From Acidimicrobiia bacterium (GTDB lineage: Bacteria > Actinomycetota > Acidimicrobiia > Spongiisociales > ZC4RG35), in the NCBI GenBank assembly GCA_041747855.1, contig JBGTEJ010000088.1, positions 362-64,361 on the forward strand: 64,000 nt of DNA, in the 5' to 3' direction. Positions 1,428-28,539 of the stretch are shown here, piece by piece (the stretch's first letter is position 1; each line of letters starts with the position of its first letter). The position numbers were made by a program, and so were the translations under genes. The notes beneath the pieces were generated by a model. That model saw nothing but the letters and a program-made list of their open reading frames with translations. It did not search any database and was not told the DNA's origin.

Positions 1428-1434
1428 CTCTCCG

Positions 1435-4784: not shown

Positions 4785-4788
4785 AGCT

Positions 4789-10257: not shown

Positions 10258-11594
10258 CGGTCGACATCCCCCATGACGGGGTCCATGGAGGCGATGGTGG
10301 CGACGGTATCAGCCATGAGGCTGTCGGCCATCGTGATCGGGAGGCCCTGGAGGTTGTAGAACGAAGGCGCCCTGGTGTGCATCCGATATGGCCTGGCCTC
10401 ACCGTCGGACACCAGGTAACAGCCCAACTCCCCACGTGGAGACTCGATCGAGACATAGGTCTCACCAGGGGGCACCTTGAAACCCTCCGTGAACAGCTTG
10501 AAGTGGTGAATCAGGGCTTCCATCGACTCGTCGATGCGGGCCCTGGGCGGGGGTGTGATCTTCCTGTCGGCGATCCGGTAGTCACCTTTGGGCATGGTGT
10601 CCATGACTTGCTCGACGATCTTCAGCGACTCCCGTATCTCTCCGATCCGCACCCGGTAGCGGTCGTAGACATCTCCCTCAGTGCCGGTGACGACATCGAA
10701 CTCGTACTGCTCGAGACCCGAGTAGGGGAAGACCTTGCGGATGTCCCAGTCCAGCCCGGTCGCCCGGAGTGCCGGGCCGGTGATGCTGTTGGCCAGGGCC
10801 TCCTCGGTGGACATGACACCTACGCCTTTGGTGCGTGCCAGCCAGATCGGGTTGTTCTCGAGCAGATCGTCGTATTGGGTCAGCCGCTGGGGAATGTCCT
10901 CGAGGATCGCCCCGACATCGTCCTTCCATCCCGGAGGCAAGTCGGCGGCAACACCACCTGGACGGATGTAGTTGTGGTTCATTCGAAGACCGGTGGTCTT
11001 CTCGAAGAAGGCGAGGATCGACTCCCGCTCCCTGAACCCATAGATCATCATCGAGATCGCCCCGATGTCCATCCCGTTGGTGGCGGTGGCCACAAGATGT
11101 GAGGAGATCCGGTTGAGCTCGGTCATCAGCACGCGGATGGCGGCGGCTCTGGGGGGGACTTCAACGCCGAGCAGTCTCTCCGCGGCTAGCGAGAAGGCCA
11201 GCTCACAGTGGAGCGGGGCCAGATAGTCCATCCTGGTCACGTTGGTGGGACCCTGACCGAAAGTGAGCTGCTCGGCTGTCTTCTCCATGCCGGTATGGAG
11301 ATATCCGATGATCGGCTTCGATCTTCGAATCACCTCACCTTCCAGTTCGACCTGGAGACGGAGCACACCATGGGTCGACGGATGCTGGGGCCCCATATTC
11401 AGGATCATCCGCTCCTCGTCGGGCACCTCGTCGTCGAAGAGGTAGTCATCGTCGACCACACGACCGTATTGCTGGTCGAGACGGGCCTCGGTTTCGGTTC
11501 GTCGGATCTCCTGGGCACCTTCGTCGGTCGGGCTGAACTCCGGCTCTTCGGTGCCTGCCACCCAGAGATCGAGCTTGGTCGTGTCTTCGCCCAT
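10254..11594 (-). CDS. nuoD: NADH-quinone oxidoreductase subunit D
   Basis: 49-kDa subunit motif MGPQHPSTHGVLRL. Has an acidic N-terminal extension of about 60 aa. Confidence 0.95.
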   Translation of the reverse strand: MGEDTTKLDLWVAGTEEPEFSPTDEGAQEIRRTETEARLDQQYGRVVDDDYLFDDEVPDEERMILNMGPQHPSTHGVLRLQVELEGEVIRRSKPIIGYLHTGMEKTAEQLTFGQGPTNVTRMDYLAPLHCELAFSLAAERLLGVEVPPRAAAIRVLMTELNRISSHLVATATNGMDIGAISMMIYGFRERESILAFFEKTTGLRMNHNYIRPGGVAADLPPGWKDDVGAILEDIPQRLTQYDDLLENNPIWLARTKGVGVMSTEEALANSITGPALRATGLDWDIRKVFPYSGLEQYEFDVVTGTEGDVYDRYRVRIGEIRESLKIVEQVMDTMPKGDYRIADRKITPPPRARIDESMEALIHHFKLFTEGFKVPPGETYVSIESPRGELGCYLVSDGEARPYRMHTRAPSFYNLQGLPITMADSLMADTVATIASMDPVMGDVDR

Positions 11595-11595
11595 G

Positions 11596-12069
11596 TCAGG
11601 TCACCTGCGGGGAGGCTTTGAATTGGACAGGAACCGAGCCGACCCCGAAGTCTTTGCGGAGGGGATAACCCTCCCAATCGTCCGGCATCAGAATTCGGGT
11701 CAGATCGGGATGACCCTCGAACACGATCCCGAACATGTCGTACACCTCCCGCTCACCAAAACCTGCCCCCGGCCATATTGGTGTGATCGAAGGGACCGCG
11801 GGCTGGTTGCGATCGATCCCGGTTGTCATCCGCAGCCGGGTTCGGTGTTGGACGGAGAGGAGATTGACCACTAACTGAAAGCGCTCCGGTCTGGCCCGCA
11901 TCCAGTCGACGGCGGTCACATCCACACACATCTCGAATCCGGAGTCGCGGGCAGCCTCGGCAAAGGGAAACCAGGATTCGGTGGGGACCACGGCGACGTC
12001 CTGACCATGGGAGACCTCCCAATTGACCCCGTCGAATCGGGTGGAGAGGGTTTCGAGGATCTGGTTCAT
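11596..12069 (-). CDS. nuoC: NADH-quinone oxidoreductase subunit C (short form)
   Basis: 30-kDa subunit core [35 protein letters not shown]. Position between nuoB and nuoD. Confidence 0.85.
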
Positions 12070-12533
12070 CGGCTGATCTCACCCGACATGATCTTGTCGT
12101 GGAGGGTGAGGATCCCGTGCATGAGGCTCTGCGGGCCAGGCGGGCACCCGGGCACGTAGATGTCGACCGGGACGATCTGGTCAACACCCTGCACCAGGGC
12201 ATAGTTGTTGAACATGCCACCGGTCGAGGCGCAGGCACCCATGGAGATCACCCATTTCGGCTCGGGCATCTGGTCGTACACCTGTCTCAAGACGGGGGCC
12301 ATCTTCTGGCTGACACGTCCGGCGACGATCATCAGATCAGCTTGCCGGGGTGAAGCCCGAAAGACTTCCATACCGAATCGGGCCAGGTCGTAGTGTGCTG
12401 CCCCGGTGGCCATCATCTCTATGGCGCAGCAGGCGAGTCCGAAGGTGGCAGGGAACATCGAACGGGTGCGTGCCCACCTGGCGGCCTTGTCGAGGGTCGT
12501 GGTCAGCAGGTTGCCGGGTGCGGTGACTGCCAT
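12066..12533 (-). CDS. nuoB: NADH-quinone oxidoreductase subunit B
   Basis: ORF 12066..12698 trimmed to [10 protein letters not shown]... That ATG overlaps the nuoA stop (ATGA at 12533). PSST motifs [11 protein letters not shown] and GCPPGP. Confidence 0.9.
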
Positions 12534-12937
12534 CAGACCACCTCGTCCGTCACCGGCACATACCGGGCTCGCCGTTTGACATTCCAGTCGAGGGCCCCCC
12601 GCTTCCACACATAGAGCAGCGTTTCCAGGACGAAGAAAGTGAAGATCAGGATCGCCGCCACCCCGTACCACTCCAGTTCGATCCAGATCACGGCCCATGC
12701 GAACAGGAAGATGATCTCGATGTCGAAGATCACGAACAGCATCGCCACCAGGTAGAACTTGACCGGGAATCTCTGCACCGGTTCTACCTCTGGGACGATC
12801 CCACTCTCGTAGGGGTCGAGCTTCTCAGGGGTCGGGTTATCGGGACTCACCAGTCTCGAGGCCAACAGGGAGACCGCTACGAAAGCTGCGGCCAACACCA
12901 ACATGACGGCTATTGGCAGATATTCGCCCAGAGTCAC
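12533..12937 (-). CDS. nuoA: NADH-quinone oxidoreductase subunit A
   Basis: 134-aa ND3-like 3-TM ORF with a GTG start (V)[18 protein letters not shown]. First gene of the nuo cluster. Confidence 0.85.
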
Positions 12938-13007
12938 GTTCGGAGCATAGAGCGGGGTCGGAGCGCCTACTAAATCGCTTCAGAGGGCCTCCGCCTAACC
13001 TTCCCGG

Positions 13008-13640
13008 GTGCCCGAACCAGGTCTTGAGCCCTCCTCTCACAACACGTATGACTTCGAGACGACCCAGTTCAGGATCGACCTGCCACGGCAGGACGACGCC
13101 GTCGAGATCTTCAGGTTGGTCGGAGGGGCCGACAGGGATGCGGTCTGCGCCACCTTGGTGTGGGACGGGCCAGACGATGTCGAGAACATCGAATGGTGGA
13201 TCGACCGCTGCAATCAGGCGACATTCGAAGATTGGGGATTCCACTGGGTGGTCCGTGATCGGGAGGGAGCGTTGACCGGATCAGTAGGGACCCCGCTAGG
13301 GGCGGTTGGAACCCGCCCCAGGTCGGAAGGGGTGGCCGATGTCGGCTACTGGATCGGGAGGCCCTACTGGGGGATGGGAGTCATGAGCGAGGTCTTGCCC
13401 GCTCTGCTCGGTCTGGGTCTCGACAGACTCGGATTCATGACCATGGAAGCCGACGTGTTCGCCAACAACGTGCGGGGCCGTCGACTGGTGGAGAGGGTGG
13501 GGATGACCGAGGAAGGGGTGACCGACAAGGGACACCTGAAGCAGGGCGTTTGGGTCGACGTGGTCCACTATGCGATGTCCGCCGAGAGGTGGAACCAGCT
13601 CGGGTCTCGGACTTCAGAGAGTGGCTCAGGAGGTCGGTAA
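13008..13640 (+). CDS. GNAT family N-acetyltransferase (RimJ/RimL-like)
   Basis: Pattern VGYWIGRPYWGMGVMSEVLPALLGLGLDRLGFMTMEADVFANNVRGRRLVERVGM is typical of the GNAT acetyl-CoA fold. The start codon is uncertain. Confidence 0.7.
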   Translation: MPEPGLEPSSHNTYDFETTQFRIDLPRQDDAVEIFRLVGGADRDAVCATLVWDGPDDVENIEWWIDRCNQATFEDWGFHWVVRDREGALTGSVGTPLGAVGTRPRSEGVADVGYWIGRPYWGMGVMSEVLPALLGLGLDRLGFMTMEADVFANNVRGRRLVERVGMTEEGVTDKGHLKQGVWVDVVHYAMSAERWNQLGSRTSESGSGGR

Positions 13641-14864
13641 GGCCCGAACAATGCCGGCAAGAGCGTCGTAGGCCCTTTCCCCGATGTGCTTCTCGTCCTC
13701 GTCGAGGAGGTTCGACATGACCTTGAGGGTCCACTCCATCAACGGTCGGTTGCGGAGACCGGTATGGGCCAACGCACGCATCACCGGGGGGTTGCCGATC
13801 ACCTTCACGAAGATCCTGGCCATCTTGTAGTAGAGCCCGAACTCGTCTTCGAGTCGCTGTGGGTAACGACGGAGCAGCCCCAGGTCGTCCTTGGTCAGTG
13901 CGTCTCCCACATAGTCAGCGGCCATCCGCCCGGTCTCGTATGCGTAGGAGATGCCCTCACCGTTCCAGGGGTTGATCGCCCCTGCGGCATCACCCACGGT
14001 TATCCAGTTGGACCCGACCAACGGCCCCCGGGAGTAGGACATGATCAGCTTCCCACCGACCGGCTTGGTCAACCGGGTCTCCTCGGATATCCCCCAGTAA
14101 TCGGGGGCGGTGGCTGCGTAATCGTTCATCATGTTGGTTGTGTTCACGGTCTTCCACCTCTTGAAGGTGGAGAGGAGGCCGACACCGACATTGATCGAGC
14201 CGTCCCCGAGTGGGAACACCCATCCGTAGCCGGGCATGGTCGCCCCCGAAGAGTCCCTCAGGTCCAACTGACTCTCCAGGAAGCGATCGGAGGATCTGGG
14301 TGACGAGTAGTAACCGCGTGCCGCAAGTCCAAGCGGGTAATCCTTTCGCCGGGCCGTCCCCAGTTCACGACCGAACCGGTTCATCGACCCATCGGCGATG
14401 ATCGTGATCTTTGGGGTGACCGTCTCGGTGGTCCCGCCGTTGGCGAGAGCGACCGACGTGAGCACCCCGTTCTCGATCACCGGGGTGGCCGTGGTCTTCT
14501 CCCTGATCAGCACGCCTTCCTTCTCGGCGAGACGGGCCACCTGGGAGTCGAGATCGGACCGCCGGATGACACCACCCCAATTGGGGTAGCGGCTGTGCTC
14601 GGGCCAGGGAAGTTCGAGCATCAGGTCGTCACCGGCGTAGGAACGGAGACCATCGATCCGGTGGAACTCGGGCACGGAGAAGTCGAAGCCCATGTCGGTC
14701 AGGTGGTAGATGGCGCGGGGGGTGAGACCATCACCGCAGGTCTTATCCCTCGGGTACTCCTTGGCCTCGACCATGGTGACCTGGTGCCCTGCTCGCGCCA
14801 GCCAGAAAGCGGCAGCGCTGCCCGACGGGCCACCACCGACCACGAGAACTTCAGGTGGGTTCAT
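13626..14864 (-). CDS. FAD-dependent geranylgeranyl reductase family protein (menaquinone/isoprenoid reductase-like)
   Basis: N-terminal VVGGGPSGSAAAFWLARAGHQVTMVE dinucleotide fold, CGDGLTPRA and GDAAG motifs. Confidence 0.85.
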   Translation of the reverse strand: MNPPEVLVVGGGPSGSAAAFWLARAGHQVTMVEAKEYPRDKTCGDGLTPRAIYHLTDMGFDFSVPEFHRIDGLRSYAGDDLMLELPWPEHSRYPNWGGVIRRSDLDSQVARLAEKEGVLIREKTTATPVIENGVLTSVALANGGTTETVTPKITIIADGSMNRFGRELGTARRKDYPLGLAARGYYSSPRSSDRFLESQLDLRDSSGATMPGYGWVFPLGDGSINVGVGLLSTFKRWKTVNTTNMMNDYAATAPDYWGISEETRLTKPVGGKLIMSYSRGPLVGSNWITVGDAAGAINPWNGEGISYAYETGRMAADYVGDALTKDDLGLLRRYPQRLEDEFGLYYKMARIFVKVIGNPPVMRALAHTGLRNRPLMEWTLKVMSNLLDEDEKHIGERAYDALAGIVRALPTS

Positions 14865-14912: not shown

Positions 14913-15521
14913 ATGAGCAGCCTCTCCAAGGCGACGGTCACAAGACTTCCGAGATATCTGCGGTTGCTGGACGACAGTGGTCAGTCTCAGCGAACGGTCA
15001 GTTCGGACGAATTGGCCGAGGCTGCCGGAGTCAACGCGGCGAACGTCAGGAGGGACCTGGCCGCACTCGAATTCCAGGGGACTCGTGGGGTCGGCTACGT
15101 GGCTTCCGATCTCCGAGACCGCATTCGCAGGGAGTTGGGGATCGAGAATCGACGGCGGGTTGGGATAGTCGGCGCCGGCAATCTGGGCACGGCACTGGCC
15201 AAGTACTCGGGACTCTCCAAGCGTGGGTTCGACGTGGTGGCCATCTATGACATCGACGTACAGCGAATCGGAGAGAAGGTGTCAGGGGTCGCCGTCCGCA
15301 GCCTGAAGACGATGGGTGACGACCTGATATCGGGGCTCTTCGACATGGCCATCCTCGCCGTCCCTGCGAGCTCAGCCCAAAAGGTCGCCGACACTCTCGT
15401 ACATGCCGGCGTCAAGTCGATCCTCAACTTCGCACCGATCCGGGTCAACGTTCCGGAGACAGTTGCCGTTCGTCAGGTCGATCTTTCCAACGAGCTCCAG
15501 ATCCTCAGCTACTACGGCTGA
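14913..15521 (+). CDS. rex: Redox-sensing transcriptional repressor Rex
   Basis: TVTRLPRYLRLL winged-helix start, SSDELAEAAGVNAANVRRDL, a GAGNLG Rossmann motif, length about 200 aa. Confidence 0.9.
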   Translation: MSSLSKATVTRLPRYLRLLDDSGQSQRTVSSDELAEAAGVNAANVRRDLAALEFQGTRGVGYVASDLRDRIRRELGIENRRRVGIVGAGNLGTALAKYSGLSKRGFDVVAIYDIDVQRIGEKVSGVAVRSLKTMGDDLISGLFDMAILAVPASSAQKVADTLVHAGVKSILNFAPIRVNVPETVAVRQVDLSNELQILSYYG

Positions 15522-15552: not shown

Positions 15553-15921
15553 TTACCCGCTCAGCGAATCGGCTTCCTGGGACTGCTCATACTGGTGGAG
15601 GGCGGTCAGAAAGGCGAGAAACAACACCAGGCTCACCAGCAGCCAGGTGATGGGGATGATCCGTACTTCGAAGGCGTTGAGCCCTTCGATGTTCTGGGGG
15701 GCCGGGCCACGTGGGGCGTAAACGACGAACAGCATCGAACTGATCGCCAACCACCCGAAAGTGGCGGACCCGGTGATGAGGAACCCCAACTTCTTCCCGA
15801 GGTTGGTGTAGTTGAAGAGGTACTGGGAGCCGATGAAGAGAAGGACCGACACGAGCGTGAGAATGATCCCGGTGATGAACATGTTCGCCGAGAGCAACGA
15901 TCTGAAGAGTTCACGGAACAT
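15553..15921 (-). CDS. Small 4-TM membrane protein, last gene of the Rieske/cyt b operon
   Basis: 122-aa hydrophobic ORF starting 3 nt after the cytochrome c stop. No family recognised. Confidence 0.5.
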   Translation of the reverse strand: MFRELFRSLLSANMFITGIILTLVSVLLFIGSQYLFNYTNLGKKLGFLITGSATFGWLAISSMLFVVYAPRGPAPQNIEGLNAFEVRIIPITWLLVSLVLFLAFLTALHQYEQSQEADSLSG

Positions 15922-15924
15922 CTC

Positions 15925-17613
15925 TCACCTCACTCCCGCCAGGTTGCCACTTCTCAGGTAGGCGGCGATCAACTCGAGGTCGGACCGGCTCAACGCGCCA
16001 CCGAATCCGGGCATCCGACCGGAACCGAAGCCGTTCAGTCCATAGGGCGTCTCAGCCACCGAACCGTTGATCAGGAACTCGACAAGGGAGTCCGGGATAC
16101 TCGGGTCGGTGGGAGGCTCACCGAATTGAACCACCGGGCGACCGTCCCAGAGCGCCGGGCCGAATCCCCCAGAGCCGACTTCTTGGGCGAAAGGCAGACC
16201 GGCACTGAAGCTCGAGGTGTGGCATCGGGCACAGTTCGCCTGGAACAACCCAACGGCTCTCGCTGCCTGCTCCTGTGAGACTCCCATGGTGGCGGCCACT
16301 CCATCGATATCGATGTCCCAGGAGCGGTCCCGCTGTGCCTGACGGAGGAAGGCCAGACCTGCCTCCTCCTGTGGTCTGATCCGATCTTCATTCTCGACCA
16401 GCACTCTCTTGATGATGGTGACGGATTCGAGATTCCCGACCAGAGATGTTGCGCTCCTCAGATCCGCAACAGCGGTGACCGATTCGGCGTTCGTCGGGCT
16501 CAGTGCGACCAGGCCCAGACTTCTCGGGACGGTGGCGTTGGCCGCTTCGGCAAGCAGGGCGTTGATCTGGGTCTCGACCGTATCGGGTATACCGTCGCCG
16601 TCACCGTCATCTCCCGTCGCCCCTTCGATGATGGCCTCGAGACGGGCCATGTAGGTGACCAGTATTGGATCCCTCAGGGCCGCCTGGTCTAGTGCAGTCA
16701 GGTTCTGCAGGAGGATTTCGGGGTCGGGGTTGGCCGGATCAAGCACGACCGGTTCGAAGGCCCGGAAATAGGCGACCGCCTGAGCCGAGATCTCGGACAG
16801 ACGGGTTTCGACCGCATCCGGAAGTCCGTCCCCGTCGGTGTCGAGACCAGAACCAGTGTTCAAGAGGCGACGGGCTTCCTCGGCGAGGGGACGGATGAAG
16901 GCGTAGTCCTCGGGGGCCTGGTCGATCTCCACGACGACCTGCTCCTGGCTGGCGATGGCGTTGATCATTGCCTGATCCGCCCCTGCCAGACGATCTAGTT
17001 GAACCTGAATGTTCGCCGCGGTGTCGGCGACGACGTCTTGCTGAGGCCGCTCCAAGGTCTTCAGGTAATTGACCACGTCGACGACCTGGAGTTCGTTCAT
17101 GGGACCCCCACCAGCCAGGCCCCAAGGCGGCATCGGGGTGTTGCCCCGACCATAGGTGACCCAATAGTTGACCTCGTCCTCGGAGTATCTGAAGAAGACG
17201 TCATCGAGTGACGGTGCCTCCCAATCCACGGTGACACCGGACCGACGCTCAACATAGGTGGCCACCCCACCCGAACCGAGTGGTCCATGGCAAGCAAAAC
17301 ATCCGAATTCTTCGACTATGTGCTCACCCCGGGATATCGACGCTTCTGCGAACTCCTCGACGAAGCCTCCTTGACGACCCGGTTCGCCCAAGAAGTAGAG
17401 AGGAAGTGACACTGCCAGAAACCCGGCTGCCGCGATCGCCGCCTTCTGGCCGCGTTCTACCCGTCTTGTCTCCAACTGCTGGTCGTCGATCCCCGGCCTC
17501 AGGTTGGGAGCGACCTCCTCCCCGCCACGGTTGCGTAAGGCGGAGACGACGATGATGCCGAGCCAGGCGATCCCCGCAACGAGGGCGAGGACGGTGATGA
17601 CTTCGGCGGTCAT
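15925..17613 (-). CDS. Membrane-anchored dihaem c-type cytochrome with a large inter-haem insert
   Basis: Two CxxCH motifs (CFACH, CARCH) about 360 residues apart, N-terminal TM helices, and a start that overlaps the upstream Rieske stop (17610..17620). Confidence 0.8.
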   Translation of the reverse strand: MTAEVITVLALVAGIAWLGIIVVSALRNRGGEEVAPNLRPGIDDQQLETRRVERGQKAAIAAAGFLAVSLPLYFLGEPGRQGGFVEEFAEASISRGEHIVEEFGCFACHGPLGSGGVATYVERRSGVTVDWEAPSLDDVFFRYSEDEVNYWVTYGRGNTPMPPWGLAGGGPMNELQVVDVVNYLKTLERPQQDVVADTAANIQVQLDRLAGADQAMINAIASQEQVVVEIDQAPEDYAFIRPLAEEARRLLNTGSGLDTDGDGLPDAVETRLSEISAQAVAYFRAFEPVVLDPANPDPEILLQNLTALDQAALRDPILVTYMARLEAIIEGATGDDGDGDGIPDTVETQINALLAEAANATVPRSLGLVALSPTNAESVTAVADLRSATSLVGNLESVTIIKRVLVENEDRIRPQEEAGLAFLRQAQRDRSWDIDIDGVAATMGVSQEQAARAVGLFQANCARCHTSSFSAGLPFAQEVGSGGFGPALWDGRPVVQFGEPPTDPSIPDSLVEFLINGSVAETPYGLNGFGSGRMPGFGGALSRSDLELIAAYLRSGNLAGVR

Positions 17614-17616
17614 TCC

Positions 17617-18498
17617 TCAGGCGTCCTCGTCACCCACTGCGGCGCTGATGCAGTTGGGCCCTTGCGGGTAGTTGAAGGACAGATCACGGGCCCTCGGTGT
17701 TTCCAGGACGGAACCGGTCTTGATGATGAACCGGCCACCCACCACGTCGACCACGAATCGATCGAGGTTGCGGGGTGCCGGGCCGCCGAACCACTCTCCG
17801 ATGGCATTGTATTTTGAGCCGTGGCACGGGCACTCGAAGCCGATCGATGTGGCGCACCAGGGCACCCGGCATCCGAGATGGACACAACGCTGAAACAGGG
17901 CCATGAGACCGCCCGCCTCGACACTCAGCCCGGCGAACTGCTCCGAGAGCGTGGTCGGCGCAGGCACCACATAGGCCCTCGCTTCAGGAACGAACACCGG
18001 GGCCACCGAACCGTCGGGGGCTACGACCATCGTCTGTAGATCAGCCAGGGCCCCGGCATCGACATCGGTTCCGAAACCACCCGTCAGCTTTGGCCACATC
18101 ATCGCCAGGGAACCCATGCCCATCAGTCCCAGGAACGAGAAGAATGTGGCGCCGATCGCCCGGTTGAAGAACTGTCGGCGGGTTACCCCGGCCTCCTCGG
18201 GAGAGACTTCGATGACACGTTGTGTCTCAACGACCCGGACACCCGATGGCGCAGGTTCGGTCGCTTCGACCTCAGTCTCCAAGGGTTCTTCTTCCACGGC
18301 CGACACCTCTTCGGCGACGGGAGCCAACGCCACACCGGCCATCGAGCGGTCGGCGCGTCTGGTCTCGGCTGAGACCCCGGCCCCGGAGTCGACCGGCTTG
18401 ACCGCCTGGGACCGTCGGAAGGCGATGGTGAAAGCCCCGATCGCACCCAGGATGGCGAACACCGCAACTGCGAGCAGGATCATGTTGGCGAACGTCAT
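17617..18498 (-). CDS. Rieske [2Fe-2S] subunit (QcrA-like)
   Basis: CVHLGCRV...CPCHGSKY Rieske boxes and an internal TRRQFFNRA twin-arginine-like motif. ORF 17617..18795 trimmed to MTFANMILLAVAV..., whose ATG overlaps the upstream stop (ATGA at 18495..18498). Confidence 0.85.
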   Translation of the reverse strand: MTFANMILLAVAVFAILGAIGAFTIAFRRSQAVKPVDSGAGVSAETRRADRSMAGVALAPVAEEVSAVEEEPLETEVEATEPAPSGVRVVETQRVIEVSPEEAGVTRRQFFNRAIGATFFSFLGLMGMGSLAMMWPKLTGGFGTDVDAGALADLQTMVVAPDGSVAPVFVPEARAYVVPAPTTLSEQFAGLSVEAGGLMALFQRCVHLGCRVPWCATSIGFECPCHGSKYNAIGEWFGGPAPRNLDRFVVDVVGGRFIIKTGSVLETPRARDLSFNYPQGPNCISAAVGDEDA

Positions 18499-19499
18499 TC
18501 GAAATGCACCCAATCGAGTATGTCGTCGAAGAACACCCCGTCCCTCCACGGGTAGGAGAAGTTGAAGCCTCGCCCCCTGAAGAGGACGCCGAAGATGGTC
18601 AGGACTGCTGAGCCGGCAAGGAACACCGAGTAGAGGGCGATGGCGAACTTGCGGTCGCTGGGCCTGGTCGACGGGTTCTTGTCGATGAAGGGGACGATCA
18701 TCAGACCCACCAGCCCGGCAAAGCCCGGGATCATCACGCCGGCGATCTGCGGGTCGAAGTAGCTCAAGAGTTCCTGCAGACCGAGGAAGTACCACGGCGC
18801 TTTGGACGGGTTGGGAGTGTTGTTGATGTTGGCCGGGTCGAGGAGCGGTGAATGAATGATCACGGCCATGATCACCAGGATGGCGGTGATCGCCAACAAC
18901 GCACCGAACTCCATGAGCATCAAATGGGGCCAGGTGTTGACCTTGTCAGCTGGCTCTGGCTTGACGTTCTGGATGGCCCTCGCCTTTACGACGGTGAGCA
19001 ACCTTTGCGTCCGGACCCCTTCGGGCAGCCCGGCCGGTGGCGCAACCGGTCTGGCACTGACCATCGCCGCAACCCTGCCGGTACCGGGCCCGTTGCCACC
19101 ATTGGTCGACGGGTCGGACGCGGGTCGGTCCTCCACCAAAGTGGCGACTGGGGCTGGCTCGGTCTCGGGTTCCGCGTCCGCCTCCGACTCGGTGGCGGAC
19201 ACCTGTTCGTCGAGAGGCTCGGCCACTTTGGGCTCCTTAGGTGGGACGTCCTGGACCATATCCGACTCGACCTCGACCTCGCTTGCTGCACCGGGCGGGG
19301 GAACCTCGTCTACGGGCTCGGGGTCGGGTTCGGGTGCCTCGGCGGAGATGGCCTCCTCGGGTCTGGGCTCAGGCAGAGCGAACTCGACGGGTGGGGCTTC
19401 GCCCTTCATCTCGGCGAGGATCCTTTCGACGGGAACACCGGTCGCCCTGGCCTTCGCCTCGGCGGTTCTTCTCAGAAGGTCTTCGGGTATCTCAACCAT
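18495..19499 (-). CDS. Cytochrome b C-terminal half / subunit IV (PetD-like) with a long acidic Pro-rich N-terminal extension
   Basis: C-terminal 3-TM part contains the PEWY-type motif as APWYFLGLQELL. The N-terminal ~170 aa are low complexity behind a short helical head. Confidence 0.8.
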   Translation of the reverse strand: MVEIPEDLLRRTAEAKARATGVPVERILAEMKGEAPPVEFALPEPRPEEAISAEAPEPDPEPVDEVPPPGAASEVEVESDMVQDVPPKEPKVAEPLDEQVSATESEADAEPETEPAPVATLVEDRPASDPSTNGGNGPGTGRVAAMVSARPVAPPAGLPEGVRTQRLLTVVKARAIQNVKPEPADKVNTWPHLMLMEFGALLAITAILVIMAVIIHSPLLDPANINNTPNPSKAPWYFLGLQELLSYFDPQIAGVMIPGFAGLVGLMIVPFIDKNPSTRPSDRKFAIALYSVFLAGSAVLTIFGVLFRGRGFNFSYPWRDGVFFDDILDWVHFE

Positions 19500-19508
19500 T
19501 TATAGCTC

Positions 19509-20285
19509 CTAGAGGGGTCCCGAGATGCCGCCGTCTTTGCGGACACGCCAGAAGTGGACCGCCATGAAGATCACGATGATGAACGGGAAGGCCAGTACAT
19601 GAAGCACATAGAACCGCAGAAGAGTCGCCTCACTAACTTCGAGCCCGGCGAAGAGGAGGAAGGTGACCTGCTCACCCACCACCGGGGCGGCTCGACCCAT
19701 GTTGCTCCCGACCGTCACTGCCCAGTAGGCCAACTGGTCCCATGGAAGCAGGTAGCCGGAGAAGGAAAGCAGGAGGGTGAGCAGCAACAGGATCACTCCG
19801 ACCACCCAGTTGAACTCGCGAGGTGGCTTGTAGGCACCGTGATAGAAGACCCGGCTCATGTGGAGGAAGACTGAGAGCACCATCAGGTGCGCCCCCCATC
19901 GGTGGATGTTTCGCACCAGCGACCCGAAAGCCACATTCGTGGACAGTCGTTCGATGTCCTGGTAGGCCAACTCGGTGGTGGGCGTGTAATAGAACATCAG
20001 GAAGATGCCCGTGATAGTGAGGAGGATGAACAAGAAGAAGCTCAGTCCTCCCAGACACAGGGTGTAGGACAGCTTGACCCCGTGCCTCTTCACCTTCACC
20101 GGATGAAGGTGATAGAGGACATTGTTCATCACCACATAGGAGCGGTTCCTGGGACTGTCCTGATAACCCTGCTTGAAGGGGGAACCCGGTCGGAGGACCG
20201 CCTCCATGAGCTGGGAGGTGCGGAGCTTCTCACCCGCCTCCTTCGCCCGATCTTTCAGACCGACTCTGCCGTTGCCGTTAGCCAA
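19509..20285 (-). CDS. Cytochrome b6-type cytochrome b (N-terminal four-helix half)
   Basis: [19 protein letters not shown] and [27 protein letters not shown] carry the paired haem-ligand His pattern. At 258 aa the cytochrome b is split. Confidence 0.9.
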
Positions 20286-20294
20286 TGCTCACCC

Positions 20295-20744
20295 CTACCA
20301 GCGCATCCCGTACGAATACCCATTCTTGAAGTCTCGTTGCCCCGTGTCGAAATCCCAGGGACGACGATCGAGACCGAGCTCGGCGGCATTCTCGGCAAGA
20401 GAGCCTTCGAACTTCCCGAGAGATATCACCCCGGTCGGACATCTGTCTATGCACAACTGACACCGGGTGCACTCATCCTCATCCACGATAAAGAAACCGA
20501 AATTCTGTGCGTCATCGGCCGGGTGGTCGACATTGACTCCTTCTGAGATCGCATCCAGTGAGAGATAGAAGATGCACTTCCAGGGGCAGATGTCGACGCA
20601 ACCCTCACAGAGGATGCATTCCGACTGATCGATGTGGAGGAACTGCTTTGGGCGTAGCTTGTCGGCGAAGTAGGTGCCCTCGACCACGGCCAGCTGATAG
20701 TCGTCCCGCATCGGGGGTGTCTCGTCTACCACTCCACGGGGCAT
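20295..20744 (-). CDS. 2x[4Fe-4S] ferredoxin-type protein
   Basis: CILCEGCVDICP and CTRCQLCIDRCP. Only the last 149 codons of track ORF 20295..21809 are kept. Its ATG overlaps the upstream stop (ATGA at 20744). Confidence 0.8.
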   Translation of the reverse strand: MPRGVVDETPPMRDDYQLAVVEGTYFADKLRPKQFLHIDQSECILCEGCVDICPWKCIFYLSLDAISEGVNVDHPADDAQNFGFFIVDEDECTRCQLCIDRCPTGVISLGKFEGSLAENAAELGLDRRPWDFDTGQRDFKNGYSYGMRW

Positions 20745-21376
20745 CAGCGACCCCCTTTGATCAGCGGCCGACCGTAGGGCGACACTTGTGCTTCGGGGCG
20801 CGCCTTGGCGGGACGTCCCGCCTTCATCTTCTGAATCTGGAGTGCAAGCACGGCCGCCCCGATCAGCACCACGTGGTAGTACCCGACGTTGATGAGGTCC
20901 TTGATCGTTCCATAACTGATATCGACCTGGTTGCCGAGGACCAGGATGGGTGGGATCGTGACCGCCACCCGTTGTCCTGACCACACCAGGTCGGTCTGTG
21001 CGAAGTTGAGCCACTCGGAGGGAACCATTCCCATGTAGAAGACGAGGGCCACCCAGGCGATCATCGAGCCAACGATCGCCCTCGACCAGGTCATCCTCTG
21101 ATTGAGCAACCATAGGAAGGAAGCGCCGACCAAGGCCAGGGTGGTTGCTCCCAGCACGATCAGGTATCCGGCGCCCTTCCAGTAGATGCCACGAGGGAAC
21201 CAGTTGGCGAAATCGACTACATAGGGGACATCGACACCGTCGATTCGTTCGGTCAGTGGGAACGAGGACCAGTGGATCCAGAAGACTCCCAATGCCAGAC
21301 CCATGAGTCCGAGGATGAGCAGGGTTGCCCCTATCGCCTTCCGGCGACTGTCGCTCAGCTCTGTAAGACGGTACAT
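20744..21376 (-). CDS. Polytopic membrane protein, first gene of the Rieske/cyt b operon
   Basis: 210-aa ORF with about 4 hydrophobic helices, translationally coupled to the ferredoxin gene. No family recognised. Confidence 0.55.
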   Translation of the reverse strand: MYRLTELSDSRRKAIGATLLILGLMGLALGVFWIHWSSFPLTERIDGVDVPYVVDFANWFPRGIYWKGAGYLIVLGATTLALVGASFLWLLNQRMTWSRAIVGSMIAWVALVFYMGMVPSEWLNFAQTDLVWSGQRVAVTIPPILVLGNQVDISYGTIKDLINVGYYHVVLIGAAVLALQIQKMKAGRPAKARPEAQVSPYGRPLIKGGR

Positions 21377-21597
21377 ACTCTCGGGTCCAGGGAGTCTCGG
21401 TTCTGTGTTGGAGAGTTTCTACCACAAGGCGGCTTTGGTTCGGAACCTGACGGTCCAGGTTCTCGGTTCCACCACCCCTCGAGTCTCCGGCTGGCGAGCG
21501 GCTAAAAATCAACAACACGACGGGGCGGACATAACGGCAGGCCATGCGAACTGGGCGGTTATGCTCCCGCCGTCTCGGTTTCGCGTGAGGAAGACGG

Positions 21598-23040
21598 TTG
21601 ACCGACAGCAGAACAGCTGACATTCGAGCCATTCTTGGTGGTGGCTCAGAAGAAGATCGGGTCGCTGCCACCCATTTCGTGGTGGGGGCACTATTCCTGG
21701 TTCTCGGGAGCCTGATGGCTGTCCTCGCCTTTGCCTCTCTTCGTTTCCCCGCCTTGATGCCGCTCAGCTTCGGGAGGTTCGAGGCGGTGGCCAACCTGAC
21801 CTTGACCATCGGATTCTGTGTGATCTCTCTGGTAGGTGGGGTCTATTACGCCCTGCCCCGTTTGACCGGTACCCGTCTCGCCTATGGCAGGTTGGCCGGT
21901 CTAGGGCTGGCCGGAATGAGTGCCTTGGTCTTGGCTGGGGTCGTTGCGGTCTTCCTTGGGTTCGGCAGTGGACGTCAGCCGTTCGGGCTTCCCTGGTGGC
22001 TCGACATCCCGATGCTGGGTGTTCTGACCGTCCCGTTCCTGGTCACGGCGAGGACGATCAGCGCACGAAACGAGAAACACTCTTACGTGTCAATCTGGTT
22101 CATCCTCGGCGGGACAACCTGGCTACCCCTGCTCTATGCCGCCCACGTGGCCGGTCACGCCCCCTTCCTCGCCTCCTTGACCGTTGCCTTCTCCGACACA
22201 TTCCTGGCGGCGGGGATCGTCACCATGGTGGTAATCACTCTCGGCACCGGTCTCTTCTATTACACGGTGGTGCGAGAACTCGACATCGCCCTGGCCAGCC
22301 GACAACTTGCCCTGGTCGGTTTCTGGTCCCTCGGTCTCGCCGCGGTCTGGTGGGGAACGGCCCAATTGATCTTCGGTCCAGGCCCTAGCTGGCTCGCTGG
22401 CACCGCGGCCGCCTTGGGCCTCGCCTTCCCGATCGGCGCACTGGCCAATGCGGCCAACGTCTCCATGACACTGGAACGCTCCTGGGGGGGACTCCGCGAA
22501 CGGCCCGAGATAGCAGCCGGGGTGTACGGATTGTTCCTCGCGGTTGGTGTAGGGGCGATGGCGGCCCTTGCCGGATTCCGATCCATAGCGGCCGTCACCG
22601 CCTTGACCTCCTTCTGGGAGGGCGTCGAGTACGCCGCCGTGGCGGGGGTCGGCGTCCTGCTGGTAGCCGGGGTCACCATCCCTGCCTTACCCCGACTCAT
22701 CGGTAGGGAGGTCCCCTCCCTTCGGACGTTGAGAAGGTTCATTCGTCTCACTCTCGTTGGCAGCATCGGCACCCTTCTCTTCATGACTGCGGCAGGCCTG
22801 CTCACCGGGTATTCATGGGTGGCCGGATCTAACAGCGGAGCGGACCCTGAACTCGGAGTCAGCTGGGGTGCAGCCACCGGTGCCAGCGTGGAGACCCTCC
22901 TGCTTTTGGCCCTCGTGACCGCAATCATCGGGTTCTTCGGCCACCTCGCCTACGCCGGCACCGTTCTCGGGACGGTCGTCAAGGGTAAGGCGGTACCACA
23001 AGAGGTCCTCGTACGGTTTGGGGAGTCATCCGATGAGTGA
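21598..23040 (+). CDS. Haem-copper oxidase subunit I homologue, cbb3 CcoN/FixN-like, lacking the canonical ligand histidines
   Basis: 480-aa ~12-TM ORF (TTG start, GAGGAAG RBS). Long ungapped resemblance to CcoN blocks (SFGR..., RNEKHSYVSIWF, YY..FW...WWG..L, ...FWEG...). See the first finding. Confidence 0.7.
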   Translation: MTDSRTADIRAILGGGSEEDRVAATHFVVGALFLVLGSLMAVLAFASLRFPALMPLSFGRFEAVANLTLTIGFCVISLVGGVYYALPRLTGTRLAYGRLAGLGLAGMSALVLAGVVAVFLGFGSGRQPFGLPWWLDIPMLGVLTVPFLVTARTISARNEKHSYVSIWFILGGTTWLPLLYAAHVAGHAPFLASLTVAFSDTFLAAGIVTMVVITLGTGLFYYTVVRELDIALASRQLALVGFWSLGLAAVWWGTAQLIFGPGPSWLAGTAAALGLAFPIGALANAANVSMTLERSWGGLRERPEIAAGVYGLFLAVGVGAMAALAGFRSIAAVTALTSFWEGVEYAAVAGVGVLLVAGVTIPALPRLIGREVPSLRTLRRFIRLTLVGSIGTLLFMTAAGLLTGYSWVAGSNSGADPELGVSWGAATGASVETLLLLALVTAIIGFFGHLAYAGTVLGTVVKGKAVPQEVLVRFGESSDE

Positions 23041-23806
23041 GCTTCTCGCTGCTGTCGCCGCTGCACTCGGCACACCGGAAGCTTTGGTCAAACGGGCTGC
23101 AGAAGCGCGGGCCGCGGCCACCGGTGCCAGCGTCGATGAGGTCCTCGGAGCCTGGGCTGGTGGCGGAAGTGTCAGCGCCCCTGCGCCTGCGGCGGCCACG
23201 CCCCAACCTGAGGAAGAGATGCCCCCGACAAGCGTCAGCAGTCCGAGCACCACCTCGGTCGATACCGAGTCGTCAGATCCTCAGCCTGAAACTGACCGCC
23301 CAAGTCCGACCGGTCCATCCCCTTCAGTGCCCGCCGGGCCATACAAACCCCCGGTCCTGGTCGGCGCGGTCGACAACCCTGCCCGTGTCCTTGCTGGCGT
23401 GATCGGATTGTTCCTGGTCGTGTTGCTGATCGGATTCGTTGGCCCGTCCATTCCCACGGAGAACATCGGGGCACGAACCAGCTATCTGGACCTAACGGAG
23501 ACCGCCAGGAGTGGCCAGCACACCTATTCGACGCTGGGCTGCGCCGCTTGTCACACCCAGATGGTGCGCCCGGTGATCGCCGACGTCGGCCTGGGGCCGG
23601 TCACACTCAACGACACCAACCAGATCCTGGGCTTGCGCCGTTTCGGGCCTGACCTTTCCGATATTGGATCTCGGGCCACTCCACCGGAGATGGAACTGCT
23701 GGTCCGGGGCACTTTGACTCACCCCGGTCATAACCTGTCAGCTGACGACATGGCCTCCCTGATCGCCTACCTCGTCGCCTCGGACACTTCAGAGGAGGAA
23801 GGGTGA
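23033..23806 (+). CDS. CcoO/FixO-like monohaem cytochrome c with an N-terminal extension
   Basis: GCAACHTQMVRP and RRFGPDLSDIGSR match the CcoO hallmarks GCxxCHSQ(M/I)(I/V)RP and KRTGPDLxRVGxR. ATG at 23033 follows GGGGAG and overlaps the upstream stop. Confidence 0.7.
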   Translation: MSELLAAVAAALGTPEALVKRAAEARAAATGASVDEVLGAWAGGGSVSAPAPAAATPQPEEEMPPTSVSSPSTTSVDTESSDPQPETDRPSPTGPSPSVPAGPYKPPVLVGAVDNPARVLAGVIGLFLVVLLIGFVGPSIPTENIGARTSYLDLTETARSGQHTYSTLGCAACHTQMVRPVIADVGLGPVTLNDTNQILGLRRFGPDLSDIGSRATPPEMELLVRGTLTHPGHNLSADDMASLIAYLVASDTSEEEG

Positions 23807-23807
23807 T

Positions 23808-24869
23808 TTGAGCGAGTTTCTCAGCGCCGCATCGTCTGCCATGGGCATCCCCGAGTCCCTGGTACGAAGGGCTGCGGCTGCACGCGCGGCAGAGACCGGT
23901 ATGACGGTCGACGATGTCATCAAGGCGTGGGCAGGTGGCGACGCGGTCAGCGTCTCCGCCCCCGCGGCTGCAGCACCACCCGCAGAAGAAGAGGCGGGTC
24001 CGACCGAGGCAACCGAACCTTCTCCGGTTCCGGGATCAAACGCGGAGTCGCCACCTTCGACGCCGACCGTGTCTGCTCCATCTTCCCCAATTGCGCCAGC
24101 AGCAGCGGGTGCCACCAGGGCACCCATGCCCACCGAGGTCGGCCCTCGTCAGGCTGCCCGCCTTCCCGAGGTGATAACCGTGCCAACGGCAGGCATTCGT
24201 GAGCGGACCAATTCCACGATCCCGAGATGGCTGACCAGCCTCTTGTTAGCCGCACCGCTCTTCGCTCTATTCGCGTTGGGCGGTCTTGCCACCGGCGAGT
24301 GTGGTCAGGCCACCGAGCTCCGGGTCGATGTGGTGACAGGTGACGTCATCAACTGTGACGGGTCGGAGTTCACCGGTTCGGGGGGGCCTGGTGGCGGGGT
24401 CGACTTCATCGCCCTCGGTGGCTCCATCTACGGAGGTACGGGCGCCAGCGGTGTCAATTGTGCCGGGTGCCATGGCGCCCAGGGTCAGGGAGTCGGGAAC
24501 TTCCCGGCGATGACAGGGGTGATCACCACTTTCTCGTCGTGTTCCGATCACATCGAGTGGGTCACGCTTGGTGCGTCCGGCTTCCTGGCTGCGGGCAGAC
24601 AGACTTATGGCGACACCGGTCGCCCGGTCAGCGCCATGCCGGCATTCGGCAACTCCTTGACCGAGGAACAGCTCGCTGCAGTGGTGGCCTTCGAGCGGGT
24701 TCGTTTCGGGGGGGCCGATCCTCAACAAACCGCCATCGATTGCGGGTTGGCCGAGGCCCCTGAGGGCGAGGATCCGGACGATGGGGAGGGCGATGATGGA
24801 GAGCCCGAAGCGGGCGACGATCCCGAGGCCAGGATCGTGAGGTTCATCGAGGCCTCTTCCACTCCCTGA
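23808..24869 (+). CDS. Membrane-anchored c-type cytochrome (CcoP-position)
   Basis: CAGCHGAQGQG haem motif and a distal MPAFG Met-ligand-like motif. TTG start 1 nt after the upstream stop. Low-complexity linker plus TM helix. Confidence 0.7.
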   Translation: MSEFLSAASSAMGIPESLVRRAAAARAAETGMTVDDVIKAWAGGDAVSVSAPAAAAPPAEEEAGPTEATEPSPVPGSNAESPPSTPTVSAPSSPIAPAAAGATRAPMPTEVGPRQAARLPEVITVPTAGIRERTNSTIPRWLTSLLLAAPLFALFALGGLATGECGQATELRVDVVTGDVINCDGSEFTGSGGPGGGVDFIALGGSIYGGTGASGVNCAGCHGAQGQGVGNFPAMTGVITTFSSCSDHIEWVTLGASGFLAAGRQTYGDTGRPVSAMPAFGNSLTEEQLAAVVAFERVRFGGADPQQTAIDCGLAEAPEGEDPDDGEGDDGEPEAGDDPEARIVRFIEASSTP

Positions 24870-27217: not shown

Positions 27218-27901
27218 ATGCTAGGAAAATGGCGGTGGGTGTCGATTGCGACAGTCATCTCGTTGCTGACTCTGGGTTTAGGGACCGTGGCCTCAGCCGA
27301 CCCGTCCACAGAGGACATGTTCCTCTCCCAGATCAACGCCTCCCGCGCCGCGGCTGGCAAGGCGCCGTTGACCGTAGACGGCAATCTCCGCTCCTACGCG
27401 AGGAGTCACAGCCAGTTCATGGCCGACGGGAACTGCCCCCCGAAATCTGACGGCTCTCCGGCCAGCATCTGTCATTCGACCAGTGCCCAGCTCCAGGCTG
27501 CGGCCGGGAGCGGATGGTCGGCCCTCGGGGAGAACGTCGGGCGGGGCAACGCCAACTCGCTGCACGAGTCTTTCATGAACTCCCCGGGCCACCGGTCCAA
27601 CATCCTCGGGGACTACAACTATGTCGGAATCGGGACGGTGTACGCCAATGACTCGACATATGTCACGGTCGTGTTCATGAAGAAGGGGAGCACCTCGGGC
27701 GGCACCCCAACAACCACGACCACCAAACCAGCGACCACGACCACCACAGCCAAGGTCACCACGACAAGCACCTCGACCACGACCACAACGACCCTTCCAC
27801 CGACCACGACCACCACCTTGATCGTCGGTCCCGACAAGCCGGTGACGCCGGGAGGATCGTGTTTGACGGTGACCCGCTTTTGGTGGGTTTGTCACGACTG
27901 A
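27218..27901 (+). CDS. Secreted CAP/SCP (YkwD-like) domain protein with a poly-Thr linker
   Basis: Signal-peptide-like N-terminus, INASRAAAGKAPL ... HSQFMA ... GENVGRG ... FMNSPGHRSNIL ... GIG core, then a Thr-rich tract. Confidence 0.8.
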   Translation: MLGKWRWVSIATVISLLTLGLGTVASADPSTEDMFLSQINASRAAAGKAPLTVDGNLRSYARSHSQFMADGNCPPKSDGSPASICHSTSAQLQAAAGSGWSALGENVGRGNANSLHESFMNSPGHRSNILGDYNYVGIGTVYANDSTYVTVVFMKKGSTSGGTPTTTTTKPATTTTTAKVTTTSTSTTTTTTLPPTTTTTLIVGPDKPVTPGGSCLTVTRFWWVCHD

Positions 27902-27933: not shown

Positions 27934-27989
27934 CCCCACAGAGGCGGCACATCTGCGGTTCTGGTGTCCCCCTGGGGGGACAGAAGACG

Positions 27990-28441
27990 GAGCGGTAGCT
28001 GTGGCCGACCGGCGTCTGTTCGCCTGACGGACCCACCCCACCCGCCGTGGACCTGACCCTGATCCCCCGGACCAGACCCCATGGTGTTCTTGGAGGCAAA
28101 CAAGCGAAGTCGGCCACCACAAGTAAGTCCCAAACGCCGAACCCCATTGTTTGGGAGCGGTAGCTGTGGCCGACCGGCGTCCGTTCGCCTGACCGAGCTA
28201 GGCGGGGGGGCGAGACGCTGACCCTGATCCCCTGGGCCCAGAACCCATCGTATTCTTGGAGGCAAACAGGCGAAGTCGGCCGGAGTCTCAAAAGGTTGGA
28301 CCCGATCGTTTGGGAGCGGTAGCTGTGGCCGACCGGCGTCTGTTCGCCTGACGGACCCACCCCACCCGCCGTGAACCTGACCCTGATCCCCGGGGATGAG
28401 ACCGTATAGCGGTCCTGGAGGTAAACAGGCGAAGTCGGCCA
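27990..28441. repeat. Three tandem ~160-nt units (cores 27990..28116, 28155..28282, 28314..28441), non-coding
   Basis: Direct reading gives periods of 165 and 159 nt. Invariant blocks are GGAGCGGTAGCTGTGGCCGACCGGCGTC, CTGACCCTGATCCCC and AAACAGGCGAAGTCGGCC, with variable internal segments. Confidence 0.85.
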
Positions 28442-28539
28442 CCATAAAAACAAACGCCCTAGTGACCGCTGGAGCCTCCTCCGCACTTCCCCGAACGGAC
28501 GTTTCTCCAAACAACCTCTAGGGCGTCTGCTGTCGCTGA

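Follow-up and report, generated by a model that had tools for sequence, protein, structure and literature searches.

Can the catalytic subunit of a respiratory oxidase lose all of its cofactor ligands and yet be kept as an intact gene, and if so, what would it be kept for? This question is raised by an open reading frame (ORF) located at 21598–23040 on the forward strand of a 64,000-nt stretch of an Acidimicrobiia genome (contig JBGTEJ010000088.1), the whole of which is referred to here as the window. The 480-aa product of this ORF is called pseudo-CcoN as shorthand. The ORF begins with TTG, five bases past a Shine–Dalgarno-like GAGGAAG; an alternative gene call (P0001, 441 aa) begins 39 codons later, and the 480-aa form is the likely product because homologues of 478–494 aa span all 480 aa. 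An initial annotation of the sequence had described the protein as a homologue of subunit I of the cbb3-type oxidases (CcoN/FixN), with about 12 transmembrane (TM) helices and with every haem and CuB ligand substituted. It is concluded here that pseudo-CcoN is a pseudoenzyme, the ligands being absent from a gene that is intact, under purifying selection and widely conserved.

The relationship of pseudo-CcoN to the haem-copper oxidases was supported by both sequence and structure comparisons. Residues 22–410 match positions 2–411 of the 436 in the Pfam COX1 profile PF00115 (E=1.9e-18, 67 bits against a gathering score of 34.8), and the NCBIfam ccoN model TIGR00780 gives E=1.9e-24 at 86.4 bits, which is below its equivalog cut-off of 583.15. 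The CcoN of Pseudomonas stutzeri (3mk7_A) was matched by phmmer over residues 30–455 (E=4.9e-15), with the best solved relatives by sequence all being CcoN chains (3mk7_A, 9g6b, 6xkw, 9g83 and 8smr). An AlphaFold2 model built from an alignment of 38 family members (pLDDT 82.6, pTM 0.87) had CcoN chains as its top Foldseek matches, with TM-scores of 0.81–0.87 and root mean square deviations of 2.9–3.5 Å, and 6XKW and 7QHO were among the structures matched. Against the PDB there were 78 matches at E<=1e-3, and all 50 of the matches listed are subunit I chains of haem-copper oxidases or nitric oxide reductases (NOR). The model fits NorB (TM 0.70–0.77; 3o0r_B, 4xyd_A) and A/B-type subunit I (0.57–0.77) less well. 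Pseudo-CcoN belongs to the haem-copper oxidase superfamily and has the complete 12-TM subunit I fold; the CcoN/FixN homology first proposed is thereby confirmed, and a placement outside the superfamily fails against the COX1 score and the Foldseek matches.

Ligand positions were mapped by MAFFT alignment with the 3MK7 CcoN, with a HMMER alignment giving the same register. The P. stutzeri numbering recovered from this alignment reproduces the published ligand set, namely H60 and H347 for haem b, H345 for haem b3 and H207, H257 and H258 for CuB, together with Y251; the same CuB residues are cited in a paper on Nitrospina. The replacements in pseudo-CcoN are A65 for H60, A205 for H207, A249 for Y251, A255 for H257, Q256 for H258, V343 for H345 and Y345 for H347. 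The initial annotation was correct on A255–Q256, V343 and Y345, whereas its TM2 position is A65 and not A64. Across 120 homologues of 58–77% identity the ligand columns are without His in every sequence, as is the cross-linked-Tyr column without Tyr. The columns of A65, A205, A249 and A255 hold A/S/T, A/S/G, S/A/G and A/S/V, respectively, that of V343 holds I/V, that of Q256 holds Q in 120 of 120, and that of Y345 holds Y in 112 of 120, otherwise V, F or I. When canonical CcoNs were reciprocally aligned to a hidden Markov model (HMM) of the pseudo-CcoN family, H, H, Y, H, H, H and H fell in the identical columns. MAFFT, HMMER and the reciprocal HMM agree that every haem and CuB ligand is substituted and that a canonical haem b3–CuB centre is lacking, and pseudo-CcoN is predicted to have no capacity for binding haem b, haem b3 or CuB in the canonical manner. 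All of the cofactor motifs of the neighbouring respiratory genes are kept, so that only pseudo-CcoN is affected by the loss.

Pseudo-CcoN has five His (26, 161, 183, 187 and 449), the same set as counted before, and family members have one to seven His per protein, some with a single His overall. As displaced ligands, H183, H187 and H449 were ruled out: no alignment places them on ligand positions and, like H161, they are not conserved among homologues. The sole invariant His is H26 (codon 21673–21675), part of a D-R-x-A-A-T-H motif where TM1 begins on the cytoplasmic side, far from the former cofactor sites. It is also kept in the distant fused clade described below (AAR.H) and is absent from canonical CcoN. 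At the former cofactor sites themselves there is a polar cluster of Q256 (100% conserved), N66 (95%), Y345 (93%), E344 (92%), E62 (89%) and E341 (87%), flanked by the invariant W252 and W340. These Trp stand in place of small residues (W252 for A254, W340 for T342) one helical turn from lost His and would fit a filling of the emptied pocket. The columns of S240, H243 and Y251, which we take to be the cbb3 proton-pathway residues of the 3MK7 work, hold A238, G241 and A249 in pseudo-CcoN, and Y223 is kept as Y221.

A pattern scan over one genome per GTDB species found 168 pseudo-CcoN loci (about 168 species-level genomes). The 80 of these 168 loci that were listed come almost all from metagenome-assembled genomes (MAGs) of Acidimicrobiia, with a few labelled otherwise, and pseudo-CcoN is a class-wide family in Acidimicrobiia and not a one-off. 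Every source name attached to these proteins reads "cbb3-type cytochrome c oxidase subunit I". In 83 of 84 loci (window included) pseudo-CcoN was matched without interruption over at least 95% of its length, and 113 of the 480 positions are at least 97% conserved. The median NG86 ratio of nonsynonymous to synonymous substitution rates (dN/dS) was 0.25 (2416 pairs, dS 0.05–1.5), a value that is approximate with dS close to saturation, as are those of the linked genes: 0.26 for the Rieske protein, 0.24 each for the dihaem cytochrome c, cytochrome c353 and the 210-aa membrane protein, 0.29 for the CcoO-like protein, 0.12 for the 122-aa membrane protein, 0.07 for cytochrome b6 and 0.06 for the ferredoxin. 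The gene had been claimed to be intact, and with 83 of 84 loci at full length and a dN/dS of about 0.25 this holds, while a history of recent decay with frameshifted orthologues does not.

The genes on either side of pseudo-CcoN bear on its role (coordinates are given in Table 1). A CcoO-like gene and then a second cytochrome c gene, for cytochrome c353, are found downstream in all 63 of the loci that extend far enough, and consecutive starts and stops of the three genes in the window overlap or abut. The likely true start of the CcoO-like gene is the ATG at 23033, which gives an 8-nt overlap with the pseudo-CcoN stop. An intact CcoO-like gene and a further CxxCH protein had been reported here in a cbb3-like gene order; both are present, the first with the motifs CAACHTQMVRP and RRFGPDLSDIGSR and the second with CAGCH, and the order of subunit I, CcoO-like protein and further cytochrome c does follow that of cbb3 operons, with the third gene encoding a monohaem protein and not a dihaem CcoP.

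The CcoO-like protein comprises an N-terminal cytoplasmic module of about 30 aa, a Pro/Ala/Ser linker, one TM helix, CAACH (175–179), QMVRP and RRFGPDL. It scored 26.9 bits against Pfam FixO (PF02433), just under the cut-off of 29.6, over profile positions 29–113 of 219. In a phmmer comparison with CcoO (8smr_F, 3mk7_B; E ~1e-3), the CxxCH-QMVRP and (K/R)R-x-GPDL-x-x-G-x-R blocks were aligned, and the CxxCH-QMVRP and GPDL blocks are presumably the ones that contact CcoN in the solved cbb3 structure (3MK7). At the place of the canonical Met-Pro axial ligand, a correspondence that rests on manual alignment, there is an invariant His235-Pro (THPGH; 73 of 73), with no conserved Met left; the fused distant clade keeps the canonical axial Met motif S-x-M-P-S-Y. 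The CcoO-like haem of the Acidimicrobiia family is probably bis-His and of lower potential. Cytochrome c353 has a single CxxCH (CAGCH, 218–222) and a conserved MP motif (SAMPAF, Met277).

The same N-terminal module of about 30 aa is common to the CcoO-like protein, cytochrome c353 and subunit IV of the divergent operon. Its pattern, [IL]PE.L[VL].R[ST]A.A[RK]A...G..V[DE].[VI]L..W/M.G, occurs in the 64-kb window only at 23072 (+), 23847 (+) and 19490 (-). It is conserved in orthologues (L001, L007, L030, L083 and others), the L083 subunit IV having it three times in tandem, and a Pfam search with the module gave no significant match. The topology of the flanking segments would place it in the cytoplasm. 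The module links subunits of both operons and suggests that these make contact, either with one another or with a shared partner in the cytoplasm. Among the genes recognised within 10 kb there was none of the accessory genes ccoQ and ccoGHIS, no genome-wide search for them having been made.

On the other side of pseudo-CcoN, all seven genes of an operon for a ferredoxin, cytochrome b6, subunit IV, a Rieske protein and a dihaem cytochrome c are divergent from it in 57 of 57 loci. Cytochrome b6 has four His for haems bL and bH together with CxGG (LCLGG), a motif of the haem-ci type. Subunit IV, besides the N-terminal module of the two cytochromes c, carries APWY as its Qo motif. As subunit IV carries APWY and the b6 is split and has CxGG, the partner complex is placed in the "APWY clade", which was described together with the CxGG haem-ci-type motif (Kao & Hunte 2014, PMC4122944). 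The sections of that paper drawn on here report split cytochrome b with PEWY or APWY in four deep-branching actinobacteria, among them the Acidimicrobiia isolate Ilumatobacter coccineum, without specifying which motif this isolate has, and state that no APWY complex has been characterised, with reverse operation being proposed (PMC4122944).

The ferredoxin is 84–97% identical across loci, and its gene, whose start overlaps the stop of the 210-aa gene by 1 nt, belongs by translational coupling to the Rieske/cytochrome b6 operon. A cytoplasmic entry or exit through Fe-S centres is possible in such a ferredoxin-bearing bc/b6f-type complex. The 210-aa membrane protein had no Pfam or NCBIfam match and the 122-aa membrane protein no Pfam family match; both are probably extra subunits. 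A shared promoter region for the two operons is presumed in the divergent spacer. A search for the Rex operator (TGTGAA-N6-TTCACA, up to 3 mismatches) found none in this spacer, and matches in the whole window were below chance.

Loss of the ligands extends to more distant homologues. A profile search of 1.84 billion representatives at 50% identity gave 911 matches at E<=1e-3. Among the best 150 of the 911, there were 105 which cover all six His columns, and these divide into 65 with none of the His, 19 with one to five and 21 with six. Two of them, P0213 and P0217, retain the haem b pair but no other of the six His, and P0168, P0192 and P0257 also have partial ligand sets; such homologues may be intermediates in cofactor loss. 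In a neighbour-joining tree (BLOSUM distance, midpoint root), which is rough and an indication only, with a sample biased towards the query profile, canonical sequences are mostly separate from several ligand-less clades. The distant ligand-less clades differ at the ligand columns (for example AAWADYF, FQWIRTE and ANGSRQW).

Several of these relatives are natural fusions. In P0166 (L083) and P0157 (L086) the oxidase shell is fused to a FixO/CcoO-like domain (Pfam FixO 72 and 83 bits, with fused relatives scoring 48–83 bits). Comparison of the Acidimicrobiia family with the fused clade by hhalign gave E=1.4e-52 at 26% identity, and an AlphaFold2 model of a 658-aa natural fusion had a pTM of 0.88, its shell matching CcoN at TM 0.87–0.89 (target-normalised). 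The Rieske/cytochrome b-type layout was also found around the distant L083 and L086 (fused forms) and L087 (P0135), and in P0151 (L088) the downstream half of the layout is kept, with the contig cut upstream. A fusion of another kind is P0165 (L084, 5020–7104), whose shell is joined to a cupredoxin in which the type-1 Cu motif (HN...CDVHPNM) is intact. A ferredoxin/cytochrome b operon with ResA/ResB/CcsA flanks this gene on one side, and the genes of a genuine caa3 oxidase follow directly downstream (CtaC with a cytochrome c domain; CtaD 249 bits). From these fusions, it is a "shell plus carrier domain" that selection preserves, and the layout of L084 suggests an aa3/caa3 oxidase at the other end of the relay.

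Taken together, we lean, with modest confidence, towards a reading in which pseudo-CcoN is a pseudo-oxidase shell that anchors periplasmic electron carriers beside or within a Rieske/cytochrome b supercomplex. An ancestral cbb3-type enzyme would have lost its haems and copper, with the shell being kept as a membrane platform. Pseudo-CcoN would not reduce O2 or NO. It would be translated together with the CcoO-like cytochrome c and the second anchored cytochrome c as a "pseudo-cbb3" module, in which the CcoN shell would hold periplasmic one-electron carriers in place. The expected partner of this module is the complex encoded by the divergent operon (ferredoxin, b6, subunit IV, Rieske protein and dihaem cytochrome c), the two probably being parts of one supercomplex. 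Electrons could then be relayed between the Rieske/cytochrome b complex and an enzyme whose genes lie elsewhere in the genome, for which an aa3/caa3-type oxidase is the most likely candidate. The physical association, the direction of flow and the electron-flow partner are inferred from sequence, models and gene context. The repurposed pseudo-oxidase of the initial annotation is supported, and the CcoO-like and cupredoxin fusions favour a scaffold over the channel or electron sink that it had also suggested.

Several observations weigh against this relay. A tblastn search with CtaC and CtaD from L084 found no terminal oxidase genes in the window or in loci L001–L083, L085 and L086; there is no terminal oxidase within the window or within 10 kb of the 82 family loci. 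The bis-His haem predicted for the CcoO-like protein, together with the reverse running proposed for APWY-type complexes, means that electrons may flow in either direction. One clade, represented by P0160 (L085, 8309–10886), has a FixO partner and adjoins an 871-aa multihaem cytochrome, an FHA/pyridine-nucleotide-oxidoreductase protein and nuo; it lies beside multihaem cytochromes and not beside a Rieske/cytochrome b operon. The invariant H26 stays unexplained by a scaffold, the absence of cofactors is read only from the loss of their ligands, and the polar cluster at the former cofactor sites could bind something else. The most conserved block of the protein (residues 251–270) is modelled with low confidence, the pLDDT being 53–59 for WWGxAQLxFGPGPxW at 251–265.

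The last of these points bear on an alternative in which pseudo-CcoN holds a redox cofactor through non-canonical ligands, be it a haem, a non-haem metal or a quinone in the emptied pocket, and has a new redox or catalytic role. This is considered unlikely, and the same low expectation attaches to the candidate sites, which would be Tyr345, a Glu or a Gln for a haem and the E62/Q256/E341/E344/Y345 cluster for a metal. The conserved polar cluster coincides with the former cofactor sites, the block around it is poorly modelled although no other part of the protein is as conserved, as expected of a ligand-dependent site, and representatives with one to five of the six His exist, two of them keeping only the haem b His. 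Unusual ligands are also known in other haem-copper oxidase families, namely His/Met and His/Lys low-spin haems and an Asp in gNOR (PMC11214002). However, conserved His, Met, Cys and Lys are lacking in the membrane core, and the cluster itself varies among the 120 homologues, with V, F or I for Y345 in 8 and K for E341 in 8. Since the distant ligand-less clades differ at these columns, the cluster is not conserved across the radiation; the invariant Trp near the lost His would fit pocket filling instead. A conversion of the shell into an ion or proton pathway, or a transport device coupled to the Rieske/cytochrome b complex, appears improbable. It would account for the buried conserved E62, E341, E344, Q256, N66, N284 and N287 in a 12-TM body that is intact and under selection, but the presumed cbb3 proton-pathway residues are lost (S240 to A238, H243 to G241, Y251 to A249), the polar residues gather towards the periplasmic face without reaching across the membrane, and the recurrent fusions are to electron-carrier domains and not to transporter parts.

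A role as an assembly, maturation or regulatory factor, such as a haem or copper chaperone or a redox sensor, and not as a stoichiometric subunit, is very improbable. The linked cytochrome c genes, the L084 copy directly after ResA, ResB and CcsA, and the conserved Rex nearby could be taken in its favour; the 8-nt overlap and the covalent fusions with a CcoO-like cytochrome argue for 1:1 stoichiometry, and pseudo-CcoN is without a metal-binding motif. A pseudogene in decay, or an artefact of assembly or annotation, as the loss of all catalytic residues might have indicated, has a negligible probability given the presence of the gene in about 168 species-level genomes, the 83 of 84 loci at full length without stops, the dN/dS of 0.25 and the 113 near-invariant positions; recent decay or an artefact is ruled out by the species spread and purifying selection. 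A shell that anchors electron carriers next to the Rieske/cytochrome b complex is the reading preferred here. A wider formulation of it is doubtful: a "fossil cbb3", whose stripped core would be the 12-helix body of an undescribed respiratory module, docking cytochrome c or blue-copper domains and, throughout Acidimicrobiia and in related Actinomycetota, wiring a ferredoxin-bearing Rieske/cytochrome b6 complex of the APWY type to terminal oxidases. A bolder form of this idea would add that the conserved Glu/Gln/Tyr/Trp cluster at the old active site makes up a new cofactor or ion site.

Among known systems, the cbb3 oxidase CcoN–CcoO–CcoP (3MK7/5DJQ) resembles the pseudo-CcoN module in its 12-TM fold and gene order, and its CcoO blocks CxxCH-QMVRP and GPDL are retained in the CcoO-like protein. 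It differs in that the seven ligand and Tyr residues are all lost in pseudo-CcoN (TIGR00780 at 86 against 583 bits), that CcoP is dihaem whereas the third subunit here is monohaem, and that the Met ligand of CcoO is a His in the CcoO-like protein; by the known mechanism pseudo-CcoN cannot serve as an O2 reductase. NorB of cNOR and qNOR is of the same superfamily, branch and fold, and cNOR also has a monohaem cytochrome c partner, but NorB keeps six His in columns that are empty in pseudo-CcoN, which is structurally closer to CcoN (TM 0.83–0.87) than to NorB. The bc1–cbb3 supercomplexes of Rhodobacter capsulatus (6XKW) and Pseudomonas aeruginosa (8SMR), which combine the CcoN fold with Rieske/cytochrome b and anchored cytochromes c, are among the best sequence and structure matches. 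In these, CcoN functions as an oxidase and no fixed divergent pairing of the genes exists, whereas here the core is dead, the linkage is invariant and the physical association is a prediction.

Tethered c-type haem relays from complex III to a terminal enzyme include cytochrome cy, c552 and the dihaem QcrC of the actinobacterial bcc-aa3 supercomplex. Their tether is a single TM helix or a part of complex III, whereas the tether proposed here would be an entire 12-TM former oxidase. Dead paralogues kept as structural subunits are exemplified by the MPP-like core proteins of the mitochondrial bc1 complex, in which an enzyme fold is likewise retained as a scaffold, but these belong to an unrelated protein family and serve as an analogy only. 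To our knowledge, no such dead-paralogue structural subunit has been described for haem-copper oxidase subunit I. The APWY-clade complexes have split cytochrome b, APWY and CxGG in common with the partner operon, and the sections of the paper drawn on here mention no associated CcoN-like gene (PMC4122944).

The remainder of the window has a G+C content of about 62%, as has the window as a whole. The nuo operon, a gene for a flavin adenine dinucleotide (FAD)-dependent reductase and a Rex-type regulator gene adjoin the Rieske/cytochrome b operon, with the Rex and FAD genes holding their position in most related loci, and this neighbourhood is a conserved respiratory gene island. Elsewhere in the window, a 159-bp tandem repeat was found at 27989–28442 (2.8 copies, 76% matches), which is apparently non-coding and is crossed by long, spurious-looking ORFs. 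It lies downstream of a 227-aa ORF (27218–27901), and the L087 gene at the corresponding position matches Pfam CAP. Folding of the repeat unit gave no evidence of RNA structure on either strand (z-scores 0.02 and -0.81), and a search of the whole window against Rfam gave no match.

Table 1. Features of the pseudo-CcoN locus and its surroundings (positions are those of the 64-kb window).
Feature	Coordinates	Strand	Basis
Pseudo-CcoN, 12-TM haem-copper oxidase subunit I homologue	21598..23040	+	Pfam COX1, 3mk7_A match, AlphaFold2/Foldseek
CcoO-like membrane-anchored monohaem cytochrome c	23018..23806	+	FixO PF02433 26.9 bits; phmmer to CcoO
Second membrane-anchored monohaem class I cytochrome c (cytochrome c353)	23808..24869	+	Pfam Cytochrom_C 36 bits, Cytochrome_CBB3 30 bits
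Divergent intergenic spacer between the two operons, 221 bp	21377..21597	.	Sequence reading
210-aa multi-TM protein, first gene of divergent operon	20744..21376	-	Kept in 57/57 loci
149-aa 2x[4Fe-4S] ferredoxin-type subunit	20295..20744	-	Pfam Fer4, two stretches, E=1.9e-12
Split cytochrome b6 (N-terminal half)	19509..20285	-	Pfam Cytochrome_B 173 bits
Subunit IV (cytochrome b C-terminal half)	18495..19499	-	Pfam Cytochrom_B_C; KAPWYF in translation
Rieske [2Fe-2S] protein (CVHLGC ... CPCHGS)	17617..18498	-	Pfam Rieske
562-aa dihaem cytochrome c (CFACH, CARCH)	15925..17613	-	Pfam Cytochrome_CBB3/Cytochrom_C, two stretches
122-aa small membrane protein, last gene of Rieske/cytochrome b operon	15553..15921	-	Kept in 57/57 loci
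Rex-type redox regulator	14913-15521	+	
FAD-dependent reductase, geranylgeranyl-reductase-like	13626-14864	-	
nuo (complex I) operon; NuoB, D, F, G, H, L recognised	1-13000	-	

No description of a ligand-less CcoN, or of a haem-copper oxidase subunit I without metal ligands, was found in the full-text literature, a coverage outside which most subscription-journal papers and theses fall. A 2024 survey of new haem-copper oxidase families reported that all of the new families keep haems (PMC11214002). Pseudo-CcoN is a pseudoenzyme derivative of the C-family oxidases that is apparently undescribed. The 65, 19 and 21 representatives with none, some and all of the six His form a naturally occurring series of steps in cofactor loss, within a catalytic core that is among the most conserved known.

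For the organisms concerned, the finding may affect how respiration is read from genomes. A MAG study which also discusses Acidimicrobiia credits several genomes with "caa3- and cbb3-type" oxidases, statements that could not be tied to Acidimicrobiia MAGs (PMC8357290). If such cbb3 calls rest on the pseudo-CcoN family, the high-affinity microaerobic respiration inferred from them would be wrong in a globally abundant class of soil, marine, freshwater and mine drainage habitats. The partner complex falls in a cytochrome b clade for which the sections of Kao & Hunte drawn on here give no characterised member (PMC4122944), and its strict linkage to pseudo-CcoN leads to a testable prediction on the composition of this complex and on the wiring of complexes III and IV in these Actinomycetota.

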